DNA of 16,514 nucleotides, taken from IMG/VR virus record IMGVR_UViG_2681813234_000010, positions 1 to 16,514 of that record; one strand, written 5' to 3'. Under the pieces are notes generated by a model. That model was not told the DNA's origin, did no database searches, and saw only the letters and a program-made list of their open reading frames with translations. The DNA comes from a virus. Lineage: Duplodnaviria; Heunggongvirae; Uroviricota; Caudoviricetes. The position numbers and the translations under genes are program-made. The stretch's first letter is position 1. The number at the start of each line of letters is the position of its first letter. Shown here one piece after another: positions 1-16,514 of this stretch.

Positions 1-1236
1 TTGGGTGAACATAAACGTTACAATGACGAGGTTATTCATAATGTCTATCCGAAAGTCATAGATGATGATTTGTTTCTCACAGCTAATCGCATGATGGATC
101 GTGTGATGTTGGAGAAGAATAAACCAGCAGAAGACCTGTTACTTGAATCTGATGTGGTGCAAGAGATCTTTCAGCTATATGAAAGTGGGCTTGGCTCAGG
201 TGCTATCGTTAAGCGTTTGCCGAAAGGGTGGAGTACTGTAAATGTACTAAGGGTTTTACGTGACAAAAATGTAGTAACGCAGAAGATTATCGATAACTTA
301 ACTTTTGAGCGTGTGAATCAAAAGTTGTCAATGAATGGTGTAGCCAATCGCATTCGGAAGGATATAACTATTGCACAAGATGATTACATAACTAACTTAT
401 TCCCGAAGATCCTTAAGTGCGGTTATTGTGGTGGTAATGTTGCGATTCACTATAATCATGTTAGAACGAAATATGTGATTTGTCGAAATCGAGAAGAAAG
501 GAAGATCTGTGATGCAAAATCCATACAGTATATTAGAATTGAAAAAAACATACTCAAATGCGTGAAGAATGTAGATTTTCAAAAATTAATGATAGAAAGT
601 ACTGGCAGTGAAACTTCAGTGCTGGATGGTCTGCATGAAGAGCTATCATCATTACGCAGAGAAGAAAATAGTTATAGCGATAAAATAAATGAAAGAAAAT
701 TAGCAGGTAAAAGAGTAGGTATACATCTCAATGATGGGTTAACGGAGGTGCAGGACAGGATTGAAGAAATAGAAAAAGAAATTATCAATGCTCAAACTGT
801 AAGAGAGATACCTAAATTTGATTTTGATATGGATGAAGTACTTGATCCAATGAACATAGAGCTACGAGCGAAAGTGCGAAAACAGCTTAGGTTAGTACTT
901 AAAGCAGTGAAATACTGGATGTTCGATAAGCGTATTTTTATCCAATTGGAATACTTCAATGATGTACTTTCACACATGCTTGTAATTGATAATAAACGTG
1001 GCGGTGGAGATGTAATATATGAAATGTCTATTGAAGAAAGAAAGGGTGAACGAATCTATACAGTTCATGAAAATGGTCATGCAGTTTTCATTGCATCAGT
1101 AACTATCGGCACAGATATATGGTCATTAGCTTTAAGCCGCACACGTACAATTGATACCATTGGCAATTACCTAAGCCTCCTTGCTCGTGAAGGTTTTGAG
1201 ATCTTTGTGAACGAAGATCAAATTGATTGGTTTTAG
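1..1236 (+). CDS. int: Large serine recombinase (phage integrase), C-terminal ~410 codons; the 5' end lies upstream of the window
   Basis: Frame is open from base 1 to TAG at 1234-1236. The translation shows the tail of a recombinase domain, then a four-Cys zinc-ribbon (KCGYCGG ... CRNREERKICD) and a long charged, coiled-coil-like segment. That order is typical of large serine integrases. The catalytic resolvase domain is not in the window. Confidence 0.75.
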   Translation: MGEHKRYNDEVIHNVYPKVIDDDLFLTANRMMDRVMLEKNKPAEDLLLESDVVQEIFQLYESGLGSGAIVKRLPKGWSTVNVLRVLRDKNVVTQKIIDNLTFERVNQKLSMNGVANRIRKDITIAQDDYITNLFPKILKCGYCGGNVAIHYNHVRTKYVICRNREERKICDAKSIQYIRIEKNILKCVKNVDFQKLMIESTGSETSVLDGLHEELSSLRREENSYSDKINERKLAGKRVGIHLNDGLTEVQDRIEEIEKEIINAQTVREIPKFDFDMDEVLDPMNIELRAKVRKQLRLVLKAVKYWMFDKRIFIQLEYFNDVLSHMLVIDNKRGGGDVIYEMSIEERKGERIYTVHENGHAVFIASVTIGTDIWSLALSRTRTIDTIGNYLSLLAREGFEIFVNEDQIDWF

Positions 1237-1316
1237 TATTGTGAGAGTACCTTACTTTCAATAAGTATGAAAATTCTTTGGAGAACGTAGTTTTTACGTT
1301 TTAAACTTTATTTTCA

Positions 1317-1347
1317 CCTCGCAGGAGCGATTCTGCGAGGTTTTTCC
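1317..1347 (+). terminator. Rho-independent terminator downstream of the integrase gene
   Basis: Perfect 8-bp stem CCTCGCAG (1317-1324) / CTGCGAGG (1333-1340) with an 8-nt loop, immediately followed by TTTTT (1341-1345). Confidence 0.6.
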
Positions 1348-1465
1348 ATGTATGGTAATGCAATGAGGTGAGGCGTGGCTTGGGGGGGCGTATAGAGCGT
1401 TACAGGAAGGATTTGCGTTAAGTGTTAGTTTGATGTGCATATCTGAGTATATTTTCCTATTATCT

Positions 1466-1494
1466 TTGACCAGTCCTCGGGAATAATATATAAT
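1466..1494 (+). promoter_or_regulatory. Sigma70-like promoter (TTGACC, 17-bp spacer, TATAAT)
   Basis: -35 TTGACC at 1466-1471 and a consensus -10 TATAAT at 1489-1494 with a 17-bp spacer, about 90 bp upstream of the ORF starting at 1584. Confidence 0.5.
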
Positions 1495-1583
1495 GGCTTC
1501 ACGCCCTTAATAAAGGCTAGGCAGACAAAAGAGATATATAAATCTTTTCGCTACTGCCGATATCAAGTAGGAGCAAATCCAAA

Positions 1584-1940
1584 ATGACACTCAAACATAA
1601 TGAAACACATATTTATTATTCCAATGATTGTGCCGTAGAACAACAAGATAAAGAAATCTGGATCGACCAGAATTTAGTATATAGCTGCTGTAAAGGCGAT
1701 GAAGTAGAGTATACAGAAGGTAATAAGTCGGACTCTCCATTCTATGGTCAAGAGGCTTTACAAACTATGTATTATACTGACCGTGGAAATGTTCAGTATA
1801 ATAATGAAGATGGGAGTTTTTACTTTCGCCTTGATGATGGGAATATGAATACATACATAGATGGACAACTCCAGATTGATGATCCTAACGGTGACTATGT
1901 AGAATTCATTGAGTTCGCAAATAGTGTAATGTCTAAGTAA
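1584..1940 (+). CDS. Hypothetical small, strongly acidic protein (118 aa)
   Basis: ATG at 1584 preceded by AGGAG (1567-1571); ends at TAA 1938-1940. By manual count about 23 Asp/Glu versus 7 Lys/Arg. No recognisable family motif. Confidence 0.55.
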   Translation: MTLKHNETHIYYSNDCAVEQQDKEIWIDQNLVYSCCKGDEVEYTEGNKSDSPFYGQEALQTMYYTDRGNVQYNNEDGSFYFRLDDGNMNTYIDGQLQIDDPNGDYVEFIEFANSVMSK

Positions 1941-1953
1941 GAAAATTTATAAA

Positions 1954-1971
1954 CGAAGGTGCTAACCTTCG
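1954..1971 (+). terminator. Weak hairpin after the 1584-1940 ORF (possible terminator)
   Basis: 7-bp stem CGAAGGT (1954-1960) / ACCTTCG (1965-1971) with a 4-nt loop. No U-tract follows, so terminator function is doubtful. Confidence 0.25.
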
Positions 1972-2040
1972 ACGGTCATCATATATGACCGATTTTAAGT
2001 GAGATACCATAAATACTCCTATAACAGATAGGAGATATTT

Positions 2041-2214
2041 ATGAATTGGATATACAAAATAATCTTTGAAATCATTGCTACGGCAATCTATATGTTCGTA
2101 CTATTTCCATGTTGGATAGTACTGTGCATCTTTTTTATGTTATTAACAGTATTAGCACTACCTTTGAAAATTCCAACCATAAATAAAATGGTTATCAGGT
2201 TTTTGGAACGATAA
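2041..2214 (+). CDS. Small hydrophobic membrane protein (57 aa); not in the supplied ORF track
   Basis: ATG at 2041 preceded by AGGAG (2030-2034) with a 6-nt spacer; TAA at 2212-2214. The translation MNWIYKIIFEIIATAIYMFVLFPCWIVLCIFFMLLTVLALPLKIPTINKMVIRFLER is almost entirely hydrophobic, consistent with 1-2 transmembrane helices. Confidence 0.4.
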   Translation: MNWIYKIIFEIIATAIYMFVLFPCWIVLCIFFMLLTVLALPLKIPTINKMVIRFLER

Positions 2215-2232
2215 AAAATAACATGGTATAAT
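2203..2232 (+). promoter_or_regulatory. Putative extended -10 promoter upstream of the small ribbon-helix-helix-like ORF
   Basis: TG at 2224-2225 followed by TATAAT at 2227-2232; weak -35-like TTGGAA at 2203-2208. Confidence 0.3.
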
Positions 2233-2352
2233 CCATATTATGGTGATCACTACCTCAACGTGATAATTATAATTCCACATCAAAAAGTAATCCCCAACAT
2301 GGGGATCTTTTTGCGTTGAGAAAAAATGGAAAATGTTAAACAAAGGAATGTT

Positions 2353-2505
2353 ATGAAAGAAAAGAAAACTATTAGTGTTGGGGTGAGATTAAGTCCTACA
2401 CAAGAAGAAATACTAAAATCACTTATAGTGTGTGGTAAGGCTACAACGATGAGTTCAGCCATTCAGTATCTGATACAGCAATATGGGATTTTAGATAGTA
2501 AGTAA
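2353..2505 (+). CDS. Small ribbon-helix-helix (CopG/Arc-like) DNA-binding protein (50 aa); not in the supplied ORF track
   Basis: ATG at 2353 with AGGA 5 nt upstream; TAA at 2503-2505. The translation MKEKKTISVGVRLSPTQEEILKSLIVCGKATTMSSAIQYLIQQYGILDSK fits the ribbon-helix-helix pattern: an N-terminal beta-strand (ISVGVRLS) followed by two short helices. Confidence 0.45.
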   Translation: MKEKKTISVGVRLSPTQEEILKSLIVCGKATTMSSAIQYLIQQYGILDSK

Positions 2506-2512
2506 GGGTTTG

Positions 2513-2560
2513 GTACTTTCACTTTAGAAAGGTACTAACAGTACTTCAGGATGAAGTACT
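2513..2560 (+). repeat. Cluster of four GTACT motifs plus a duplicated AGGATGAA just upstream of the HNH/AP2 gene
   Basis: GTACT at 2513, 2532, 2541 and 2556; AGGATGAA occurs twice (about 2549 and 2570). Likely a regulatory binding array or leader. Confidence 0.3.
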
Positions 2561-2578
2561 TAGTTTCAAGGATGAAAT

Positions 2579-3079
2579 ATGAAAAAGGAAAAAAGAAATG
2601 ACCTAAAGGGTCAGGAATTACCACATGTAAAAGAAGCACTACGAGTATGGAATAACTTTCACTCAAGAGTGCGTAATAACATCAATTATAGTACTGTTAC
2701 CATCTGCGATGACTGGTATCGGTTTAGTAATTTTTATTATTGGTATGTTGAAAATGTTGTTGATGGTTGGCATTTAGATAAAGACATATTAGGAGGTAAT
2801 GAGTACAGCCCAAGTAACTGCATCTTTGTACCGAGAGAAGTAAATCAATTGTTCCGTAAAGCACCAACGTCATTATCAACCGGTGTTGTCGTTAATCATA
2901 AGGGCTATCAAGCACAAGCAACATTTGATAAGAAAGTACATAAGTTTGGGACATACCCAACGATAGAAGAAGCTCATGCTGCTTATGTTATTGGGCGTAA
3001 ATCATATATCTATAAACTATCGCAGAAGTATAAAGCATATCCAAAACTTAGTGCGGTACTATTACAAAAATCAAAATAA
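2579..3079 (+). CDS. HNH-type endonuclease-like protein with a C-terminal AP2-like DNA-binding domain
   Basis: ATG at 2579 with AAGGA 6 nt upstream. Residues WHLDKDILGGNEYSPSNCIFVPREVN match an HNH_3-style H...N...N motif. The downstream GYQAQATFDKKVHKFGTYPTIEEAHAAY resembles an AP2 domain, a pairing common in phage homing-endonuclease-like proteins. Confidence 0.55.
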   Translation: MKKEKRNDLKGQELPHVKEALRVWNNFHSRVRNNINYSTVTICDDWYRFSNFYYWYVENVVDGWHLDKDILGGNEYSPSNCIFVPREVNQLFRKAPTSLSTGVVVNHKGYQAQATFDKKVHKFGTYPTIEEAHAAYVIGRKSYIYKLSQKYKAYPKLSAVLLQKSK

Positions 3080-3144
3080 CGAAATGGCCTGAGTACTGGA
3101 AATACTACAGGTCAATATTAACATCTATCATATGGGTATTTATT

Positions 3145-3669
3145 ATGACAAAAAAGAAAGAGCCGCATGAAATAAAGAAACGTGGACGAAAACCAAAAGA
3201 ACACGATAATGCAGAATTACAAGATCATTTAAGGGGAGTACGCCATCTTAATCAACTTACAGATGAAGTACGTAGAGTAATATCAAACTCTGTTAAAAGT
3301 TACTTTGAAAAGAACAATAAACGTAAGACTTTCTCAAACAAGAATATGCTACTTCTGGTTACATCGACTCGATACATCACAGATGAAGCGATAAAGAACA
3401 ATATCGAGTACTTTGATGCCTTCACACTCAATGAGTACGGCGATTCCTCAGTACGAGATTATAAGATGGTCACGATTGCTATATGTGAGGGTCTGAATGC
3501 AATTCTAAGTAGTGGTAAGCCAGTAAGAAGTGATACACCAGAGGGATCACAGTACTTAACTGGTGAAGAAGCATATCAACTACGTATGGCTTTAGATGGT
3601 GGCTGTACTAAGGCAGACCTACTAAAGGTTATAGCTACAATTTATCCCGAATTAAGACATTCTAAGTAG
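3145..3669 (+). CDS. Hypothetical protein with a basic AT-hook-like N-terminus; possible DNA-binding regulator
   Basis: ORF of 174 aa. The N-terminus has KKRGRKPKE (AT-hook-like). The C-terminal LTGEEAYQLRMALDGGCTKADLLKVIATIY loosely resembles a helix-turn-helix of the sigma region-4 type. Function not established. Confidence 0.5.
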   Translation: MTKKKEPHEIKKRGRKPKEHDNAELQDHLRGVRHLNQLTDEVRRVISNSVKSYFEKNNKRKTFSNKNMLLLVTSTRYITDEAIKNNIEYFDAFTLNEYGDSSVRDYKMVTIAICEGLNAILSSGKPVRSDTPEGSQYLTGEEAYQLRMALDGGCTKADLLKVIATIYPELRHSK

Positions 3670-4122
3670 TGTTTTAATAACGGTTCAAATGTCGTAATTA
3701 AGGTTAAATGGGGTTTTTATGGGGTTGATTAGTGCTGCTTGCACTAGATATAGTATCTAAAATGAGTTAAAAAACACTGTATATGGGTTGTCCCGAATTT
3801 CGACACCATAATTAGAAATTATTAAGACCTCTTGTACTACGTCCAAATCGGTCTTTGAGTGCCTACACTCCCTGCGGTCGTATAGTCACTGAAAAACAAA
3901 TTAAACCGATCCTTGCGTTTTTTCTCGCTAGTACTCGAAAAACACGCAGGGGATTTACTCGCTTTCGCTCAGACAGGTAACAGTACTGACTAAACTATTG
4001 GGGTCGGCCTATGGCCTAAAGTTCGCTTCGCTCTTTTTGAAGTATCTACGCGGGCTAAGCCCTTGTTGGGGTTATCGGGCTGTTTAAGCCCTTACTGAAG
4101 TCATCAAATTATCTAACGACAC

Positions 4123-4246
4123 GAAGCAGTACTATCAATTGATTACTTCAAATGAGTTACTAAGTGAGCAGTCGTCTCACTTGCAATACTTATGATCTAT
4201 ATAAATGAAATCTGCAAGTGAGACTCCGGAGAAGTAGTACTATCAA
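4123..4246. repeat. Two 16-bp direct repeats (15/16 identical) bracketing a palindromic site
   Basis: GAAGCAGTACTATCAA at 4123-4138 and GAAGTAGTACTATCAA at 4231-4246. An extra AAGTGAG half-site copy sits at 4162-4168. Confidence 0.6.
4174..4224. repeat. 51-bp site: perfect 12-bp inverted repeat with a 27-bp AT-rich spacer (candidate attP, origin or operator)
   Basis: GTCTCACTTGCA (4174-4185) and its exact reverse complement TGCAAGTGAGAC (4213-4224). The spacer ATACTTATGATCTATATAAATGAAATC contains a GATC and a TATA-like run. Confidence 0.6.
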
Positions 4247-4403
4247 GTCACATATATTTGAGTACTGAATGATTTAGTTAGTCACAGTTGAAATAATTAA
4301 TATATAAAGGTCTACTTATAAATTCTACCGTGACAACCATCTACTATTTCAATCCAGGCCATTATGACTGGGTTTACGGGAAGCGTGAATAAAACTGTCT
4401 CAG

Positions 4404-5138
4404 TCAACTCAATAAAATTTCCATACTTGTGGGTGAAAACATACGATAGCTGATAATGTCACCTACATTGAAATTTGTTTGGAAAAAACTTCTAAGATCT
4501 GTTCCTCCCATGATTCTAGGTACTTTATTAGTGTTTGCCGTTCTGTTAATGATTGCAGTGAGGCTTGTATTGGTGCTGGAGTTAGTTATTTTTATTCTTG
4601 CACCATCTTCTCCAAACTCATGACTGGCAGCCACGGTAACGTTGAAAAATCCTCTTTGCCAATATGTATTAGCCATTCTGAAATTGTAAGTCGGGCTTGA
4701 TTTCTCTGAAGTGACAATTTCTATGTAATCTGTCGTGATTATCTTTTCCTGATAACCATTCCACTCAGGCTGTAGTACTCTAATTATGTCATCTTCTAAT
4801 GCAGCAGCTAGGTTTAAGTGAAATTGACCATAGTGCATTAATCCATTATCGGGTAAAACAAAAATGTCTACCGCTTCATTGTTTTTTAGATGCCTAATAA
4901 TATTCGCGTTGTTTTTTATATTTGTTGATTGAGTAGGGCCTGGCATAGAATAATGATACATTCTACGTTTAAGTAAACGAGTAGTTTTGCCTACATATTT
5001 TACCTGACCATCACAAATGAACGCATAAAGATTATTTTTGACATCTGAGTGAGAAGGTTCAAGTGTAAATTGTAGTTTTTCGCCATTGAGTTCCCAAAAG
5101 CCAATTTTAATAAATCCAATTTCAAGTAATCTATTCAT
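4404..5138 (-). CDS. GIY-YIG nuclease-domain protein with an unrecognised ~110-aa C-terminal domain
   Basis: ORF of 244 aa. Residues LYAFICDGQVKYVGKTTRLLKRRMYHY match the GIY...YIG core with the conserved Arg. Downstream, AAALEDDIIRVLQPEWN matches the conserved Glu and Asn region (compare UvrC ALLLEHNYIKLYQPRYN). The start ATG overlaps the stop of the upstream gene (ATGAATAG on the minus strand). Confidence 0.65.
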   Translation of the reverse strand: MNRLLEIGFIKIGFWELNGEKLQFTLEPSHSDVKNNLYAFICDGQVKYVGKTTRLLKRRMYHYSMPGPTQSTNIKNNANIIRHLKNNEAVDIFVLPDNGLMHYGQFHLNLAAALEDDIIRVLQPEWNGYQEKIITTDYIEIVTSEKSSPTYNFRMANTYWQRGFFNVTVAASHEFGEDGARIKITNSSTNTSLTAIINRTANTNKVPRIMGGTDLRSFFQTNFNVGDIISYRMFSPTSMEILLS

Positions 5139-5877
5139 GTATGACCTTCTTTCGAACTATGAATTTGTCAGTGGGGTAATTATTTGAATAGGTAGAAATA
5201 ATAAACGCTGAAACTTTCCGGTGTGTCTCTGTAACCTGATTCTTAAACTCTAAAAATTCAGCAATAGTTAAATCTTTTGCCTGTCGGTCTGCGTGTATCA
5301 GTGAGTCAACTTCAAAATATGAAGAAAGAAATAAGTTGTATATATTCCCATATTCCCGATTAGTGTCCTTAAGGATATTAATGATAGAGCAACTATAGTT
5401 ACTTAATTCAAAACCATTTCTTGGTATTGTATTTAAACTGTTAATTACTGAATAGGAGAGGTTAGCGAACTCATCCATTAAATTATCTAACTTGTGAACC
5501 TCATTTCTTAGTGATTCGTTGATGGCACAATTGTTATTTAATACGCTGATCGATTGTTTGCCCACTGACCAATATAAATTTCTCAAATGGTGGCTGGCAG
5601 AATTAACTTTTGTTAAATTAGTATAAATCGATTCTTCGATAACATTATGAACCACATCATATTGCTTTTGTGCTAACCATTCAGGTGCTTTTTTATACGC
5701 AGCAATCGCTATACCTAAAGTACCAATTGTAGCTAATGAACTCAACCAATCACTTACGCTTCCCCATTCAAAGCCATTAGAATCAGAAAATAGTACTTTA
5801 ATTAAAGCTAATATCGCTACCCATAGAAGTACTATGACGGTAGCAACTAATAATTTGTTCCATCCTTCAACTTTCAC
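5131..5877 (-). CDS. Membrane protein with two N-terminal transmembrane helices and a ~180-aa soluble domain
   Basis: ORF of 248 aa with a probable GTG start at 5877. Hydrophobic segments LLVATVIVLLWVAILALIKVLF and WLSSLATIGTLGIAIAAY. Its stop overlaps the start of the GIY-YIG gene by 8 nt, implying an operon. Confidence 0.55.
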   Translation of the reverse strand: MKVEGWNKLLVATVIVLLWVAILALIKVLFSDSNGFEWGSVSDWLSSLATIGTLGIAIAAYKKAPEWLAQKQYDVVHNVIEESIYTNLTKVNSASHHLRNLYWSVGKQSISVLNNNCAINESLRNEVHKLDNLMDEFANLSYSVINSLNTIPRNGFELSNYSCSIINILKDTNREYGNIYNLFLSSYFEVDSLIHADRQAKDLTIAEFLEFKNQVTETHRKVSAFIISTYSNNYPTDKFIVRKKVIHE

Positions 5878-6049
5878 TTTCTTAACCCGTAGAATGGTTC
5901 ATGGATGAAAAATTTTACCATTTGCAGTTATGTTTCGTAAATGATCATCGTAGAGTGAAAATTTAACTTAAGTGGAAGTTGCAACTCCATTTGGTGGAGT
6001 TGTACTGGTTGAGATCACGATTTCTTTGAAAAAAACGGGGCTGGTTGCT

Positions 6050-6076
6050 TTGAACTGGTTAACATAGTGGGATAAT
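6050..6076 (+). promoter_or_regulatory. Putative promoter for the HNH / PD-(D/E)xK cassette
   Basis: TTGAAC at 6050-6055, then TG (6068-6069) followed by GATAAT at 6071-6076 (extended -10-like). AGGAG at 6100-6104 precedes the ATG at 6110. Confidence 0.3.
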
Positions 6077-6109
6077 AAGCACCGAAGAAGAACTTCAGCA
6101 GGAGCAGGT

Positions 6110-6838
6110 ATGAACAGAAAGCAATTCATCCAGTCACACGGAGCTACTTGCAGTAACTGGACGTGGAGTTGGTCATTTGTTAACCATGAAAAGAAGATGG
6201 TCATCTTTGGGTCATGGGATGTTGAGAGTGAACAAGAGCGGTCTGTAATACTCCGGGAGAAATGGGAATACAACTCAAACAACAAAAAACAACCGGGATA
6301 CACCCAGGCACTGGAACACATCCGTTTAGCCCATGAAGGCTACGAACTTTACACCTTCAATATGGTTTTCGCAGAACACCCTGAGAATCCTGAAATTGCA
6401 GTAATCAAGGATTTTGAGCGTAAATTAAACAAGCGATATCTTCGTAAAGAAGGTGTTGTTTGGTATGCAGACTTCTTACCTAATCCATTCCCTGATGAAA
6501 TTCCTTCAGGAGAGAGTTTTGTTGAAGGTGCAAAGACTCAAGTAACAGTGAACTACTACGAACGCGATCCAAAGGCCCGACAAGCCTGCATCCAGCATCA
6601 CGGTACTACCTGTAAATGCTGTGGCTTCGATTTTGAGAAGGTCTATGGTACACATGGCCGTGGGTTCATTCATGTACATCACATCAAGCCGCTTCATACG
6701 ATTGGGGAAAACTATGTGGTCAATCCCGTAACAGATATGATCCCATTATGTCCAAACTGCCATGCAATGGTACATCACGGAAGCGAAGTACTTACAATTG
6801 CAGATTTGAAAAAGAAAATGACATTCTGGAGCGAGTAA
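6110..6838 (+). CDS. Zn-finger HNH endonuclease (McrA-like HNH) with an unrecognised ~150-aa N-terminal domain
   Basis: ORF of 242 aa with a good ribosome-binding site. The C-terminus CKCCGFDFEKVYGTHGRGFIHVHHIKPL...DMIPLCPNCHAMVHH is a classic HNH motif with CxxC...CxxCH zinc ligands, as in McrA-type enzymes. The N-terminal domain has no motif I can assign. Confidence 0.7.
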   Translation: MNRKQFIQSHGATCSNWTWSWSFVNHEKKMVIFGSWDVESEQERSVILREKWEYNSNNKKQPGYTQALEHIRLAHEGYELYTFNMVFAEHPENPEIAVIKDFERKLNKRYLRKEGVVWYADFLPNPFPDEIPSGESFVEGAKTQVTVNYYERDPKARQACIQHHGTTCKCCGFDFEKVYGTHGRGFIHVHHIKPLHTIGENYVVNPVTDMIPLCPNCHAMVHHGSEVLTIADLKKKMTFWSE

Positions 6839-7630
6839 ATGGATTTATCACAATTGAGCAACGTCGAATTGATGCAACTGAATCAGTTGACGCTTGATGA
6901 GTTAGAACGACGAGAGGTTATCAGAACCAGAAACAATCCTATCAGTGAGTACACTGAATGGCTGGTTGCGGATAAGATGCAGATGGTACTGGCTGCACCT
7001 AGTACTAAAGGGTATGACGCTACAACAACTGATGATCGAAAAATTCAGATTAAGTCTCGTAAGAATAATTTAAAAAACCAATCATTAATTCTTGGAATTA
7101 TCAGAAATTATGATCTGAACCAATTCGATGAACTCATTGCCGTAATATATAACCATGATTTCTCAATTCGTTATGCCATATCCATACCACATGAATTAGT
7201 GAAGGAATATGGTTTTTATAATGAGCATCAGAATGGGTACACTTTAAGAATAAGCAATTTATTACTTAATGATCCACGTGTAACAGATATCATTGAATTT
7301 ATTGACCCAGACACTGAACGTTCAAAGGAAGATATCACGGTGAAGCCAGATTCAAACACTATCCGGGATGTACAGACAATAGGAATGCAGACGTTTGTTG
7401 AGTACTATCAGTATGTTGAAAGTGGTATGAACACAACTGATCTTGTTGAAAAGATGGTAACTGACCATCCAGAATGGAAGGAAAGTACTGCAAGAACAAA
7501 GGCATCTTCAATGCGAAGAGTATTTAAGAATTGCGACAACGTTGAAGCACTAAAAATCATCTATAAGTCGGATCACCCAGCAATAACGGATGAGATTAAG
7601 AGTAAACTTATGACGCTTTGGGATAAATGA
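6839..7630 (+). CDS. Hypothetical protein with a PD-(D/E)xK-like (Hjc/restriction-endonuclease-fold) motif
   Basis: ATG at 6839 directly abuts the TAA of the HNH gene (TAAATG). EWLVADKMQMVLAAPSTKGYDATTTDDRKIQIKSRK fits an E ... D ... (E/Q)xK nuclease-core pattern. The fold assignment is tentative. Confidence 0.5.
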   Translation: MDLSQLSNVELMQLNQLTLDELERREVIRTRNNPISEYTEWLVADKMQMVLAAPSTKGYDATTTDDRKIQIKSRKNNLKNQSLILGIIRNYDLNQFDELIAVIYNHDFSIRYAISIPHELVKEYGFYNEHQNGYTLRISNLLLNDPRVTDIIEFIDPDTERSKEDITVKPDSNTIRDVQTIGMQTFVEYYQYVESGMNTTDLVEKMVTDHPEWKESTARTKASSMRRVFKNCDNVEALKIIYKSDHPAITDEIKSKLMTLWDK

Positions 7631-7729
7631 ACAAAGTTTTGGTTATATTTTTGACGCAAAAAGATATAATTGTAGTACTTCCACCTTTCGCATTTGGGTA
7701 GGTTTGTTTGGGCGATTGGTGGAAGTGTA

Positions 7730-8041
7730 TCAAAACGGTAATTCTCCCTGCTCACAAAACCATCCATCTTCATCATGCTGCTTATAGACAGAATTCTCAG
7801 TACTCAGATAATGCAAACCTTCCAGTACTGAACTTAGCGGCGTTTCCAGTATGAACACGAAGCAATCACGCTCAATCGTGCCTAACCAGTATGTACCTTG
7901 CTGGTTCTGGAAGAAAACGCGATCCCCATATGAAAACTCATCAAGACTGTATCCCCAATAGCAGACCTTAGCCCATTGGCCTAAATGCTCAAACTGCTGC
8001 ACCCCGCGTTTGATTGCCAGATCAAAACCGTTCTTGCCCAT
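7730..8041 (-). CDS. Hypothetical protein (103 aa) in a GC-richer island
   Basis: ORF with ATG at 8041. Its composition matches the surrounding GC-rich segment rather than the AT-rich backbone. No family motif recognised. Confidence 0.4.
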   Translation of the reverse strand: MGKNGFDLAIKRGVQQFEHLGQWAKVCYWGYSLDEFSYGDRVFFQNQQGTYWLGTIERDCFVFILETPLSSVLEGLHYLSTENSVYKQHDEDGWFCEQGELPF

Positions 8042-8146
8042 ACTATGCCTCTACATTAATACTGGTTATTCATACAGTATTGCATCACATTTCGCACAGA
8101 TCCAGCCATGAAAATACTTACCACTAAAAACGGTAGAAATGTAATT

Positions 8147-8216
8147 ATCGATCATTTTAATTTGATCAATGGTTAAAAATGATCAATTATCAATCAGTTA
8201 TGACAACTGAGAGATC
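8147..8216. promoter_or_regulatory. GATC-rich divergent intergenic region with a repeated TGATCAAT motif
   Basis: Four GATC sites in about 67 bp (8150, 8164, 8181, 8213). TGATCAAT occurs twice (8163-8170 and 8180-8187). The region lies between the divergently oriented 7730-8041 ORF and the EAL-like ORF. Confidence 0.4.
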
Positions 8217-8219
8217 AAC

Positions 8220-8729
8220 ATGAAACTCGAACATTGGGCAATTCCGATCACTTCATTGGACGGTATGTTACTCGGCGTAGAGCTGTAAACCCGTGTACTG
8301 ATAAACGGTTGCCAGGTACTGATGGGGGCAGGAAAAGAAAGTGAATATATCCGTCACGTGGTCTATCAGAACCAGTTAAGAATGATTCAGGGTAAAGCCG
8401 CATGGTTCAAAGAAAAGGGGCTGTTGTGCGTGCTCAGTACTGGCACAGGTACACGCTATGAAGATCTACCATTCATACGGTACATGGCTGCTGAACCACT
8501 GCTAACGAACGGTTACGACTTAGTTCGACTAAATAGACGGTTCACTGAAGAACACATAGAGCGGCTGATCTTCCCGGTACTCATCAATAACATCATGCAG
8601 TACTGCGACAAGGTGATCGTACAAGTCAGCAGCAATCGAAATCACAGGATTTTACGAGAGTCGGGGGTATGGGCAGTACAGGGAGAGTACAGGCCAATCC
8701 GCTTTGAACAATGCGAACAACTTCTATAG
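8220..8729 (+). pseudogene. EAL-like (possibly YdiV-type degenerate EAL) ORF interrupted by a single in-frame TAA
   Basis: ATG at 8220 opens MKLEHWAIPITSLDGMLLGVEL, then TAA at 8286-8288, and the same frame continues open to 8729 (170 codons in total). The N-terminal xPIxxxxGxxxGVEL and C-terminal WAVQGEY patterns resemble EAL-domain ends. The family assignment is tentative. Confidence 0.35.
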
Positions 8730-8739
8730 GGATATAACA

Positions 8740-9012
8740 ATGAAAATACTAATCGTCATGTTGGTAGTACTGCTCACAGGCTGCGGCAGCGTACATCACT
8801 CATTCATGGATAAAGCCTTTGTCGGCAACGTTGATAACAAGGCTACAATAGTACTGTTCGACGCTGGCACACGAAACGGGGTGAAGTACTACCGGCCTCA
8901 GTTCCAGAGTGATTGTGGCCGCACCTACAATCCGATTTACCAGGTGGACAATGGCAGTACTACATGCCATATACGAGAGGAAAGAATTAAAAAAATGCAT
9001 CAATATAGATAA
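8740..9012 (+). CDS. Small lipoprotein (90 aa)
   Basis: ATG at 8740 with AGGGA 8 nt upstream. The N-terminus MKILIVMLVVLLTGCGS has a hydrophobic signal peptide and the lipobox L-T-G-C. It starts 11 nt after the EAL-like ORF stop. Confidence 0.55.
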   Translation: MKILIVMLVVLLTGCGSVHHSFMDKAFVGNVDNKATIVLFDAGTRNGVKYYRPQFQSDCGRTYNPIYQVDNGSTTCHIREERIKKMHQYR

Positions 9013-9092
9013 TAAACAAAAATCAAAGAGATAGAATTATTAAATTATTAAGTGTATGTGGCATGATGAAAAATTAAATAATATATAATACC

Positions 9093-9122
9093 CTCATGCT
9101 GTTATTGATAAAACAGCATGAG
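9093..9122. terminator. Bidirectional hairpin terminator between convergent genes
   Basis: Perfect 11-bp stem CTCATGCTGTT (9093-9103) / AACAGCATGAG (9112-9122) with an 8-nt loop and A/T-rich flanks on both sides. It sits between the lipoprotein gene (+) and the DUF3800 gene (-). Confidence 0.55.
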
Positions 9123-9132
9123 AATATATATT

Positions 9133-10287
9133 TCAACGTAGCATGGCTAATGTTCTGGAAATTCTTATTATATCCTTCTCAATATCATCTAAAACAGGAG
9201 TTGAGTTTCTGCTTCGCTCTGCAATTTCTTGCAAAATATATCTATTTAAATGGTTGTTAACATTTTTAGGGTCAAGGTTTTCTGGTGTGGGAACAACACA
9301 GCACTGCCAATAAAAAATCTCATCTTCAAAATGATTTAGCCATTTAGAATGATATTTTTCTTTCGATTTTTTCTTGTTAAGGACATAAATGCTAGCCGCA
9401 GCTACCACATCCGCAATTTGTATACCATGCGTGACTTTAGAATCAGAAAGAATCATTGGCTCAGATAGCTTAAATGTGATCGGGATTTTTTTATCATGAA
9501 AAGTCTCGAACACAATCTCATCATTGCCTATCATCTCATTGAATGAGTCCTGATGAGTAATTAATGGTTTTGAGCTGTCGCATATAGCTCTCAATGTACC
9601 AAACTTACTACTCATATCGCACAGGAGATTATAAAGAGAAGTCGTTGTCAAATCTAATAACCACTTATCAATCCCAGTACCCTCAAGGCCTTCATATTCT
9701 TCTTCAATTATAGAGATGTTATTCTTGGCGAAATCATGAATGTCCATCATAATTTCAGAATTTTTAGAACCAACAACTGGTTCGATAAAACTATTAACCA
9801 ATATTTTACCTCGTGAAAAATCTTCAAATCGCGAATGTAATAGTTCTGAATATTCATCCTTAGCTATTAAAGAAAAATACATTATATTTGAGATGAATAG
9901 GTGAAATTTAAGGTTGTAAAAAATTGAGCTTTTAGCTGCTAATACTGGCTCAAAAATATATTCGAAGAATTTTCCTGAGAGGGCATATTTTTTTTCGTTT
10001 ACAACCACACGCATACGACCACGGAAATGATTAAGTATTTCATCTACGGCTGGTTGAAATCTCTTGCTATTTACGAGAGTGCTACCTTTTAGCTCTTCGG
10101 CTGCGATCGAGTACTTGTTTATTATATAATCAACAAACTGTTTACTTTCCTCATCATCAGTCACGACTGCTGCGTAACTAAAAAAAGGCTGATCTTTTGA
10201 AAGTAAGTTATTACCAGTGAATCCTGATTCATCGAAATATACATTCTTTACCAATTTGGTCATTCCTTTATGAGCTACAATGTGCAT
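9133..10287 (-). CDS. DUF3800-family protein
   Basis: The N-terminal VYFDESGFTG and C-terminal GIQIADVVAAA match the two conserved DUF3800 signature motifs. The start is uncertain: ATG at 10287, ATG at 10263 or TTG at 10254. None has an ideal ribosome-binding site. Confidence 0.6.
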   Translation of the reverse strand: MHIVAHKGMTKLVKNVYFDESGFTGNNLLSKDQPFFSYAAVVTDDEESKQFVDYIINKYSIAAEELKGSTLVNSKRFQPAVDEILNHFRGRMRVVVNEKKYALSGKFFEYIFEPVLAAKSSIFYNLKFHLFISNIMYFSLIAKDEYSELLHSRFEDFSRGKILVNSFIEPVVGSKNSEIMMDIHDFAKNNISIIEEEYEGLEGTGIDKWLLDLTTTSLYNLLCDMSSKFGTLRAICDSSKPLITHQDSFNEMIGNDEIVFETFHDKKIPITFKLSEPMILSDSKVTHGIQIADVVAAASIYVLNKKKSKEKYHSKWLNHFEDEIFYWQCCVVPTPENLDPKNVNNHLNRYILQEIAERSRNSTPVLDDIEKDIIRISRTLAMLR

Positions 10288-10466
10288 GTGCTATTAATAT
10301 AACATTGTAATAATGCTAATGTAAAATAGAATGTAAGTATTTTTAAGCAAGCTAATTAAGTTAAATTACTAATTAAGGTACTCCGGCAGCCCAGCTTAGA
10401 ACGCGAGTTTTCGGCACCGGATTCTTTAAGTTATGTGTGAAGTTTAGATAGCTTCCCGCACCGCAC

Positions 10467-11030
10467 TTAGCAAAGTACAACACCTATTTCATTTAACGCA
10501 CAATCGCAATGACGGTTTGTCGGACATTCGCATAATTTGAATACTGCATAAGATCCTTTAAGGGTATCGGTTACATACTTGTCCATTTCTTCAACTACAG
10601 ATGATGAGCAATATAAATGAAAACCAACACAGAAAGAATTTCGCATCGGATACTTACATTCTTGTATAGAGTTGAGTTTCAAATGGTCTGCTTGCAATCC
10701 TCTTTTTAAGGCAGATGAACGCTTAGTACATTTCAGCTCAATAAAGATATAGTCTTCAAAAAGGGTATCTTTTTCTCTCATTATTATATCGATTTTTGAG
10801 AGCTTGCTTGCAGGGAAATTATTAGGGTCAAGAAAAGCTGTAACTTCACGTTTAACTTCATATTTTCTTTTTTTGTTAAGGAAGTGCTCAAATTCAATTT
10901 GTAGCCATTTTTCCCAATCATTAGTTTCATTACTGACGAAGGAATACAGACGCCTCTTTATATCTTCATTCTTTAGGAAGCTATTCAGTAACTTTACCAG
11001 TAAAGAAAAATCATTGTTGCGGTCTGACAT
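10467..11030 (-). CDS. Hypothetical Cys-rich protein with a possible PD-(D/E)xK-like core
   Basis: ORF of 187 aa. KIDIIMREKDTLFEDYIFIELKCTK fits a D ... ExK pattern. The C-terminus contains a Cys/His cluster (CVGFHLYC ... CEC ... HCDC), suggesting metal binding. Confidence 0.5.
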   Translation of the reverse strand: MSDRNNDFSLLVKLLNSFLKNEDIKRRLYSFVSNETNDWEKWLQIEFEHFLNKKRKYEVKREVTAFLDPNNFPASKLSKIDIIMREKDTLFEDYIFIELKCTKRSSALKRGLQADHLKLNSIQECKYPMRNSFCVGFHLYCSSSVVEEMDKYVTDTLKGSYAVFKLCECPTNRHCDCALNEIGVVLC

Positions 11031-11044
11031 AGTGATCTCAATAA

Positions 11045-13412
<2,368 letters not shown>

Positions 13413-13415
13413 TAA

Positions 13416-16514
<3,099 letters not shown>

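Follow-up and report, generated by a model that had tools for sequence, protein, structure and literature searches.

A strongly acidic protein gene in an exchangeable slot between a serine integrase and a ribbon-helix-helix-type regulator gene of Enterobacterales prophages

The stretch of viral DNA analyzed here (the window; 16,514 nt, positions 1 to 16,514 of IMG/VR record IMGVR_UViG_2681813234_000010) opens with the end of a large serine integrase gene, followed on the same strand by a gene for a small acidic protein, a small membrane-protein gene and a gene for a ribbon-helix-helix (RHH)-type regulator (Table 1). The acidic ORF starts with ATG and includes its stop codon in the coordinates given. 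The original prediction, made from the sequence alone, had described a protein of 118 aa with about 20% Asp/Glu and few basic residues, encoded by the first gene after the integrase. Both parts of this description are borne out: the protein contains 13 Asp and 10 Glu (23 residues, 19.5%), 7 Lys plus Arg and 2 His, with a net charge of -16 and a pI of 4.05, and the upstream ORF (1..1236) is the C-terminal part of a serine integrase. Tyr and Asn are likewise abundant in the acidic protein (11 each), and it carries repeated aromatic-x-D-x-G-x-x-x-Y hairpin-like motifs. Its sequence contains no membrane segment or signal peptide.

Table 1. Features of the acidic-gene locus, the adjoining island and the alternative slot occupant. 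Coordinates refer to the window unless a locus is named.
Feature	Coordinates	Strand	Basis or remarks
Large serine integrase, C-terminal 411 aa, truncated by window start	1..1236	+	Pfam Recombinase, Zn_ribbon_recom; PHROG_95 integrase
Replaceable cassette (regulatory region, acidic ORF, terminator)	1242..2056	+	Flanks conserved in E. coli relatives with another gene
Conserved non-coding block	1296..1420	+	Terminator scan; kept in all lineages
Sigma-70 promoter, TTGACC-17-TATAAT	1466..1494	+	11/12 match; equivalents at all homologous loci
5' leader, ~83 nt	1501..1583	+	Two predicted hairpins, 1503-1517 and 1520-1558
Acidic-protein gene	1584..1940	+	ORF list, composition, homologs, AF2 model, dN/dS
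Hairpin with terminator-like ATTTT tail, cassette end	1973..1991	+	Terminator scan
57-aa hydrophobic membrane-protein gene, backbone, outside cassette	2041..2214	+	ORF list; conserved in L008, L012, L013, L015
50-aa RHH-type regulator gene, anchor downstream of slot	2353..2505	+	Follows acidic gene at every locus
Variable island	4404-11030		Between conserved early genes and small terminase gene
GIY-YIG-like 244-aa gene and 248-aa membrane-protein gene	4404-5877		
Methyl-directed restriction-like pair	6110-7630		PADLOC mREase_II 1e-62, mREase_IV 4e-8
DUF3800 gene	9133-10287		
Alternative slot occupant, 125/126-aa orphan	L013 5846-6223; L034 2760-3137; L025 4248-4628		

Full-length relatives of the truncated integrase measure 620-646 aa and also contain a Resolvase domain. 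In relatives the complete form of the window integrase is 644 aa long and inserts next to yeaG/prkA. The window integrase shares 97% identity with the 644-aa gene product of locus L008 and 99.5% with its counterpart in E. coli AREA_C483. Downstream of it, the conserved non-coding block includes the hairpin of the integrase terminator (1316-1341), with TTTTT after it, and the motifs GGTAATGCA ... GCGTTACAGG ... GTTAAGTG. We note that this block persists where the integrases are less than 25% identical, and also in loci that carry the 125-aa cassette described below.

Upstream of the acidic gene, the promoter consists of TTGACC (1466-1471), a 17-nt spacer and TATAAT (1489-1494). It is the best-scoring site in the scanned region and the only match of at least 11/12 in the whole window, on both strands. 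Such a match is expected by chance about once per window, and at least one occurs in 66% of Markov simulations; since about one is expected per window in AT-rich DNA, the hexamers alone are not significant. The promoter is nevertheless credible because of its position (intergenic, on the right strand and 89 nt upstream of the acidic ATG) and because a sigma-70-like -35/-10 pair is located 90-140 nt upstream of the acidic gene at all homologous loci, even where the sequence has diverged. The original prediction had put a near-consensus promoter directly upstream of the gene. The promoter itself stands, but "directly" does not, as a leader of ~83 nt separates the two. The leader folds with a minimum free energy of -17.6 kcal/mol (z = -2.0), and compensatory changes at two pairs among three sequences provide weak evidence for the fold. 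It contains the Shine-Dalgarno sequence AGGAG (1569-1573) and a CTACT..C(G)GATAT motif common to the window leader and a second leader type; Rfam and ARAGORN searches returned no match to an RNA family. At the other end of the cassette, the terminator-like hairpin lies inside the stretch conserved with the Enterobacter locus L001 (to 1998). In sum, the acidic cassette is shown to carry what read as autonomous transcription signals.

The acidic ORF is a real, selected gene, because pairwise dN/dS across five lineages is 0.08-0.41, indicating purifying selection. All full-length homologs are acidic, with net charges of -9 to -17 and pI values of 4.05-4.62. Fifteen positions are invariant in the family alignment (E19, D22, Y33, G38, E40, F53, T61, Y63, Q71, N73, D76, S78, Y80, F81 and Y91). 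The acidic residues are mostly not conserved by position, the only invariant ones being E19, D22, E40 and D76, and the alignment contains no conserved Cys/His or catalytic-looking motif.

The family is small. Six clusters were found among 5.8 billion proteins, and an exhaustive HMM scan of 1.84 billion representatives gave nine matches. P0013, one of these nine (a 3873-aa eukaryotic protein matched over 18 short stretches), was rejected as summed short-repeat noise; its "SYGLENGDENEYKD" segment recurs inside a repeat unit of ~200 residues. Altogether the family amounts to about 10 clusters, all in Enterobacterales prophages, with E. coli, Enterobacter, Pectobacterium and Mangrovibacter as hosts. 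Only one of 185,579 species-representative genomes, that of a Mangrovibacter, has the acidic-gene locus, and five IMG/VR contigs carry the gene.

Database searches place the protein in no characterized family. Pfam-A hmmscan at E <= 1 returned no anti-restriction family and a sub-threshold CBM_10 as the sole match, while PHROG and PADLOC searches gave no match. A profile search of PDB sequences at E <= 10 found four unrelated chains, which we regard as noise. No copy of the acidic gene was detected by tblastn in the phage and plasmid collections, megablast of the region against phages gave no match, and a literature search by accession and by peptide words found nothing on the protein. The searches show that no enzyme or known-family signature is detectable. 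We also looked for a confident match to an unrelated enzyme fold, which the original prediction had named as counterevidence, and obtained none.

An AlphaFold2 model built from a seven-sequence alignment (pLDDT 85.5, pTM 0.77) depicts an eight-strand beta meander (strands 3-9, 23-27, 30-36, 39-46, 60-65, 68-73, 79-83 and 88-92) with a C-terminal helix (106-117) and a disordered stretch at 13-19. Foldseek of this model against PDB and BFVD yields no match below E 0.05, so that the fold gives no mechanistic hint. Polo-box PB3 of PLK4 and YD/Rhs or MORN-type beta-hairpin repeats bear a structural likeness only; what they share with the model is an antiparallel beta meander with a C-terminal helix packed on it. 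Strand alternation would put Y33, E40, T61, Y63, Q71, N73, Y80 and Y91 together on the same side of the sheet. The opposite face is predicted to be hydrophobic and would pack onto the C-terminal helix through F108 and F111. This arrangement suggests a putative conserved polar-aromatic binding surface rather than a conserved array of carboxylates.

Comparison with related loci reveals that the acidic gene occupies a slot, bordered by the large serine integrase on one side and by the conserved small membrane gene and the RHH gene on the other. When the window is aligned with E. coli L034, positions 1-1241 match at 96.8% identity and positions 2057-3699 at 85.6%, and the DNA in between does not align at all; similarity to L001 is found only over 1354-1998 and 3087-3988. 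L034, L036 and L038 each combine an intact 644-aa integrase (96.4-96.6% identity to that of the window) with an unrelated 125-aa gene in the slot, and a tblastn search detects no acidic-protein homolog within 3.5 kb of their RHH genes. The 125-aa allele is present at all five distinct E. coli places sampled for the L034-type RHH protein. That RHH protein occurs in 386 blocks of the collection, and the E. coli-type acidic protein on very few contigs. A 126-aa allele fills the slot in K. michiganensis, relatives in K. pneumoniae have an empty slot and keep the membrane gene, L022 has a 99-aa ORF instead of the acidic gene, and L005 has two extra ORFs ahead of it. The slot can therefore be counted in at least four states, with the RHH gene conserved in all of them.

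The alternative 125/126-aa protein has a pI of 4.8-5.1 and an N-terminal SKRGRVPK motif, and gives a weak Lsr2 AT-hook-like match (E 0.04) that is far below the family threshold. Its family counts 31 clusters in Escherichia, Citrobacter, Kluyvera, Klebsiella, Cedecea and Yersinia, all of them named hypothetical. Family searches with the 125-aa, 99-aa and 106-aa slot ORFs returned no informative match. The acidic gene is a rare allele, with ~10 clusters for its family versus 93 for the RHH anchor.

At least four integrase lineages, 21-50% identical to one another, have the acidic gene behind them, and the corresponding acidic proteins are 43-65% identical; integrases less than 25% identical adjoin acidic proteins that are 54-65% identical. 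In Pectobacterium, L028 and L029 encode near-identical acidic proteins next to different integrases at different chromosomal sites. Across the loci compared, the cassette thus presents itself as present, absent or replaced independently of the integrase.

As a separate observation, the acidic gene of the window is itself a recombinant of the Enterobacter L001 type and the L008 type. Over alignment columns 1-62, which cover about 59 codons from the start of the window gene, its pN is 0.11 versus L001 and 0.41 versus L008; after column 62, it is 0.095 versus L008 and 0.25 versus L001. In the DNA, breakpoints fall near 1370 and 1760. Promoter and leader go with the N-terminal half in their likeness to the Enterobacter L001 type, and the C-terminal half is like the L008 type.

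Phage morons are accessory genes with their own promoter and terminator, located between conserved genes of related prophages, as in HK97 and the lambdoid phages. The acidic cassette is like them in its predicted sigma-70 promoter and terminator and in its position between conserved flanks (the integrase; the 57-aa membrane gene and the RHH gene) in a place where it is replaced or absent in some relatives. It differs from them in having the base composition of its neighbors: GC is 0.35-0.38 in the cassette and 0.31-0.40 in the flanks, which is no difference. Judged by its arrangement, the cassette is best read as a moron-type accessory cassette in an allelic slot.

The RHH protein downstream of the slot forms 93 clusters across Enterobacterales and carries the JGI name Arc/MetJ-type RHH regulator. 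Its AF2 model (pLDDT 89) has an extended N-terminus followed by two helices, and a PDB profile search gave nothing significant; the putative RHH assignment rests on the source annotation and the topology of the model. The RHH gene begins 412 nt downstream of the acidic gene and has a promoter-like site of its own (2203-2232), with hairpins between the two genes. With this gap and the separate promoter-like and terminator-like sites, the two genes probably do not form one operon. Two copies of the sequence TTGCGTTRAG, and no more, are present in the window (at 1413 and 2311), one upstream of each gene, a count within chance expectation at one mismatch. In eight lineages, 9-mers common to the upstream regions of the acidic and RHH genes were not above shuffles, and neither repeats within 1237-4400 nor the TTGCGTTRAG and ACTTAAGT motifs did better than chance as operators.

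Variable small genes beside a conserved small RHH regulator have also been described, recently, for anti-CRISPR and anti-defense loci with Aca14 (bioRxiv 10.64898/2026.07.27.740549). The present locus is like such acr-aca loci in having variable small ORFs beside a conserved RHH-type regulator, a strong promoter and a structured 5' leader. It is unlike them in that the two genes have separate signals with a membrane gene between, and in that no shared inverted-repeat operator was found; the comparison also turned up no homolog of a known Acr. Homology of the RHH protein to Aca14 found no support, the hhalign probability being 9.8% over 21 columns (Aca14 taken from Table S2 of the preprint).

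The host element is a prophage of 37% GC in Enterobacterales, with a lambda-type terminase (Nu1-like small subunit and GpA large subunit) and a portal gene; both terminase and portal genes are intact in the window. No INPHARED phage has a large terminase more than 35% identical to that of the prophage, and the lineage is therefore an uncharacterized one. Its backbone runs from the integrase through the variable slot, the membrane gene of ~55 aa, the 50-aa RHH gene and genes of 155-180 aa to the variable island and the small and large terminase genes. Insertions are found between yeaG and mipA in E. coli, beside rimO in Enterobacter and at two further sites in Pectobacterium. IMG/VR contigs of the family reach only 30-34 kb, and no classical repressor or replication module was recognized in the prophage parts seen. 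The family looks like a compact temperate phage lineage of Enterobacterales with interchangeable serine integrases. We also observed that the copies in complete E. coli genomes, L012 (AREA_C483) and L013 (14EC007), have decayed through the insertion of IS3/IS5 elements and a group II intron, with a split large terminase gene, an interrupted integrase and most structural genes lost.

Besides the genes listed in Table 1, the island of relatives contains genes for an OLD/AAA_15-TOPRIM protein, a reverse transcriptase, an EAL protein and an 8xMP protein. By its gene content, the region adjoining the slot is a predicted defense-gene hotspot. Two further features lie between the RHH gene and the island. 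At 2579-3079, a 166-aa protein matches phrog_953 "HNH endonuclease" (1.5e-38) over profile positions 227-371 of 420 only, that is, over the C-terminal, non-catalytic part; the gene is present in some relatives and absent in others, and its product is probably a stand-alone DNA-binding domain. Downstream of a 174-aa gene, the non-coding stretch ~3848-3995 is 74-82% identical in Enterobacter relatives and matches unannotated DNA in ~31 other E. coli chromosomes at 78-84% identity. In E. coli KSC9, a similar stretch again follows a 155-aa hypothetical gene and belongs to a different island, which has a tyrosine integrase beside ffs. Rfam and tRNA searches of the window stretch gave no match; possibly it serves the variable island as a conserved boundary or as a regulatory element.

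How the acidic protein might act has to be weighed against this background, and the original prediction had offered two proposals. One was a DNA mimic of the Ocr/ArdA kind. In a protein of this kind, arrays of carboxylates would imitate the phosphate backbone and fill the DNA groove of type I restriction-modification or similar enzymes. Strong acidity is in fact conserved in bulk across all homologs, and the protein resembles Ocr (T7 gp0.3) and ArdA in being small and of very low pI, encoded behind an apparently strong host-type promoter, and also accessory. It has, however, no sequence relationship to either. The Pfam search at E <= 1 gave no match to Ocr, ArdA or Antirestrict (the ArdA and ArdB-KlcA families), and PHROG and PDB sequence searches added none. 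The model, a beta meander with one helix instead of the Ocr helical dimer and with nothing below E 0.05 in Foldseek, therefore shows neither Ocr/ArdA architecture nor a recognizable enzyme fold. Membership in the Ocr/ArdA group fails on sequence and fold, and a DNA-mimic anti-restriction protein, with mimicry by a new fold, is an unlikely identity for the acidic protein. The accessory status of the gene suits a general counter-defense role, and the specific Ocr/ArdA version is left unsupported. The other proposal was a recombination directionality factor (RDF) for the adjacent integrase. Such a factor would bind the DBD2/coiled-coil junction of the integrase and switch it to attL x attR excision. 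Like the genes for phiC31 gp3, Bxb1 gp47, TP901-1 Xis, SPbeta SprB and A118 gp44, the acidic gene does adjoin a large serine integrase. In contrast to these RDFs, it is dispensable in relatives with the same integrase. An RDF gene would be expected in every element with that integrase, and the intact, 96.6%-identical E. coli integrases of L034, L036 and L038 are accompanied by the unrelated 125-aa gene, with no acidic homolog in the 3.5-kb flank. Further points against an RDF are that an integrase 56% identical to that of L010 occurs without the acidic gene, that the slot is empty in K. pneumoniae relatives, and that L028 and L029 pair near-identical acidic proteins with two different integrases, each at its own chromosomal site. 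With a near-consensus promoter and no recognizable operator, constant excision would also be a risk. We dropped the lack of covariation between integrase and acidic protein as decisive proof, because the RDFs of phiC31, phiBT1 and TG1 show such a lack too: between the phiBT1 integrase and those of phiC31 and TG1 identity is 24-25%, and yet their RDFs are 61-85% identical and cross-react (PMC11014563). Divergent integrases can thus be served by conserved RDFs; a fold common to all RDFs does not exist. Mainly because the cassette is dispensable in prophages with the same integrase, an RDF is very unlikely. Taken as a whole, the context speaks for an accessory role in conflict and against that of an RDF.

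The explanation we favor, tentatively and as one possibility, is that the acidic protein has no enzymatic activity and would bind or inhibit its target stoichiometrically, in conflicts of phage with host or of phage with phage. In such a scheme, (I) the product would be a cytoplasmic, non-enzymatic, strongly acidic beta-sheet protein, (II) it would act by stoichiometric binding and blocking of another macromolecule, (III) its likeliest target would be a basic or nucleic-acid-binding protein of a host defense system or of a competing phage, and (IV) the outcome would be a counter-defense or competition factor; binding mode, target and timing of expression are what we infer here. We count in favor of this explanation the selection on the gene, the putative binding surface, the own transcription signals, the conserved acidity, the allelic slot, the modular exchange, the rarity of the allele, the lack of an enzyme signature, the defense hotspot next door and the Aca14-type precedent. 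Against it, we count that no homolog of known function and no significant fold neighbor were found, that few acidic residues are conserved by position, that the RHH gene is probably outside the operon, that GC is as in the neighbors and that no phage or plasmid copy was detected. Small acidic phage proteins are, moreover, common, and most are not known inhibitors. The main rival, which we regard as less probable and somewhat doubtful, is a moron that would be expressed constitutively in the lysogen to its benefit, either for superinfection exclusion, as a decoy or inhibitor of a DNA-binding protein of incoming phage, or to adjust the silencing of the element by binding a nucleoid protein such as H-NS. 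The anatomy is that of a classical moron, with an autonomous near-consensus sigma-70 promoter and an own terminator; the gene adjoins the defense-gene hotspot, and its presence varies among relatives. The element has 37% GC in Enterobacterales hosts, and the alternative slot allele has an N-terminal RGR-type motif with a weak Lsr2 DNA-binding match (E 0.04), though that match is far under the family threshold. The acidic protein lacks the membrane segment or signal peptide that many exclusion proteins have, and this rival is computationally indistinguishable from the counter-defense reading. We hold it improbable that the protein is instead a core prophage regulator, that is, an anti-repressor or a partner or antagonist of the RHH regulator in the lysis-lysogeny decision. 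The acidic gene is always followed by the RHH gene, the prophage parts seen contain no recognizable classical repressor or replication module, and the conserved structured leader suggests regulated expression. However, no shared operator was detected, and because many relatives lack the acidic gene yet keep the RHH gene, the acidic gene cannot be a core function.

Returning to the binder or inhibitor reading, its furthest extension would be that the acidic protein founds a new anti-defense family with an unseen beta-meander fold, that the slot between integrase and RHH gene is an acr-aca-like anchor, and that its 118-aa, RGR-motif 125-aa and 99/106-aa occupants are all counter-defense genes of a widespread Enterobacterales prophage lineage without a sequenced phage relative. 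We consider this extension speculative and rather doubtful. The acidic gene is a reasonable but unremarkable candidate for anti-defense screening.

For the use of serine integrases as tools, the acidic gene is a poor RDF candidate, and the RDF should be sought elsewhere in the prophage. If the acidic protein is not a defense inhibitor, it would be one more orphan moron. If it is one, it would add a new fold and a new family to the anti-defense repertoire of E. coli, Enterobacter and Pectobacterium prophages, and the slot between integrase and RHH gene would become a guilt-by-position anchor for finding similar genes.
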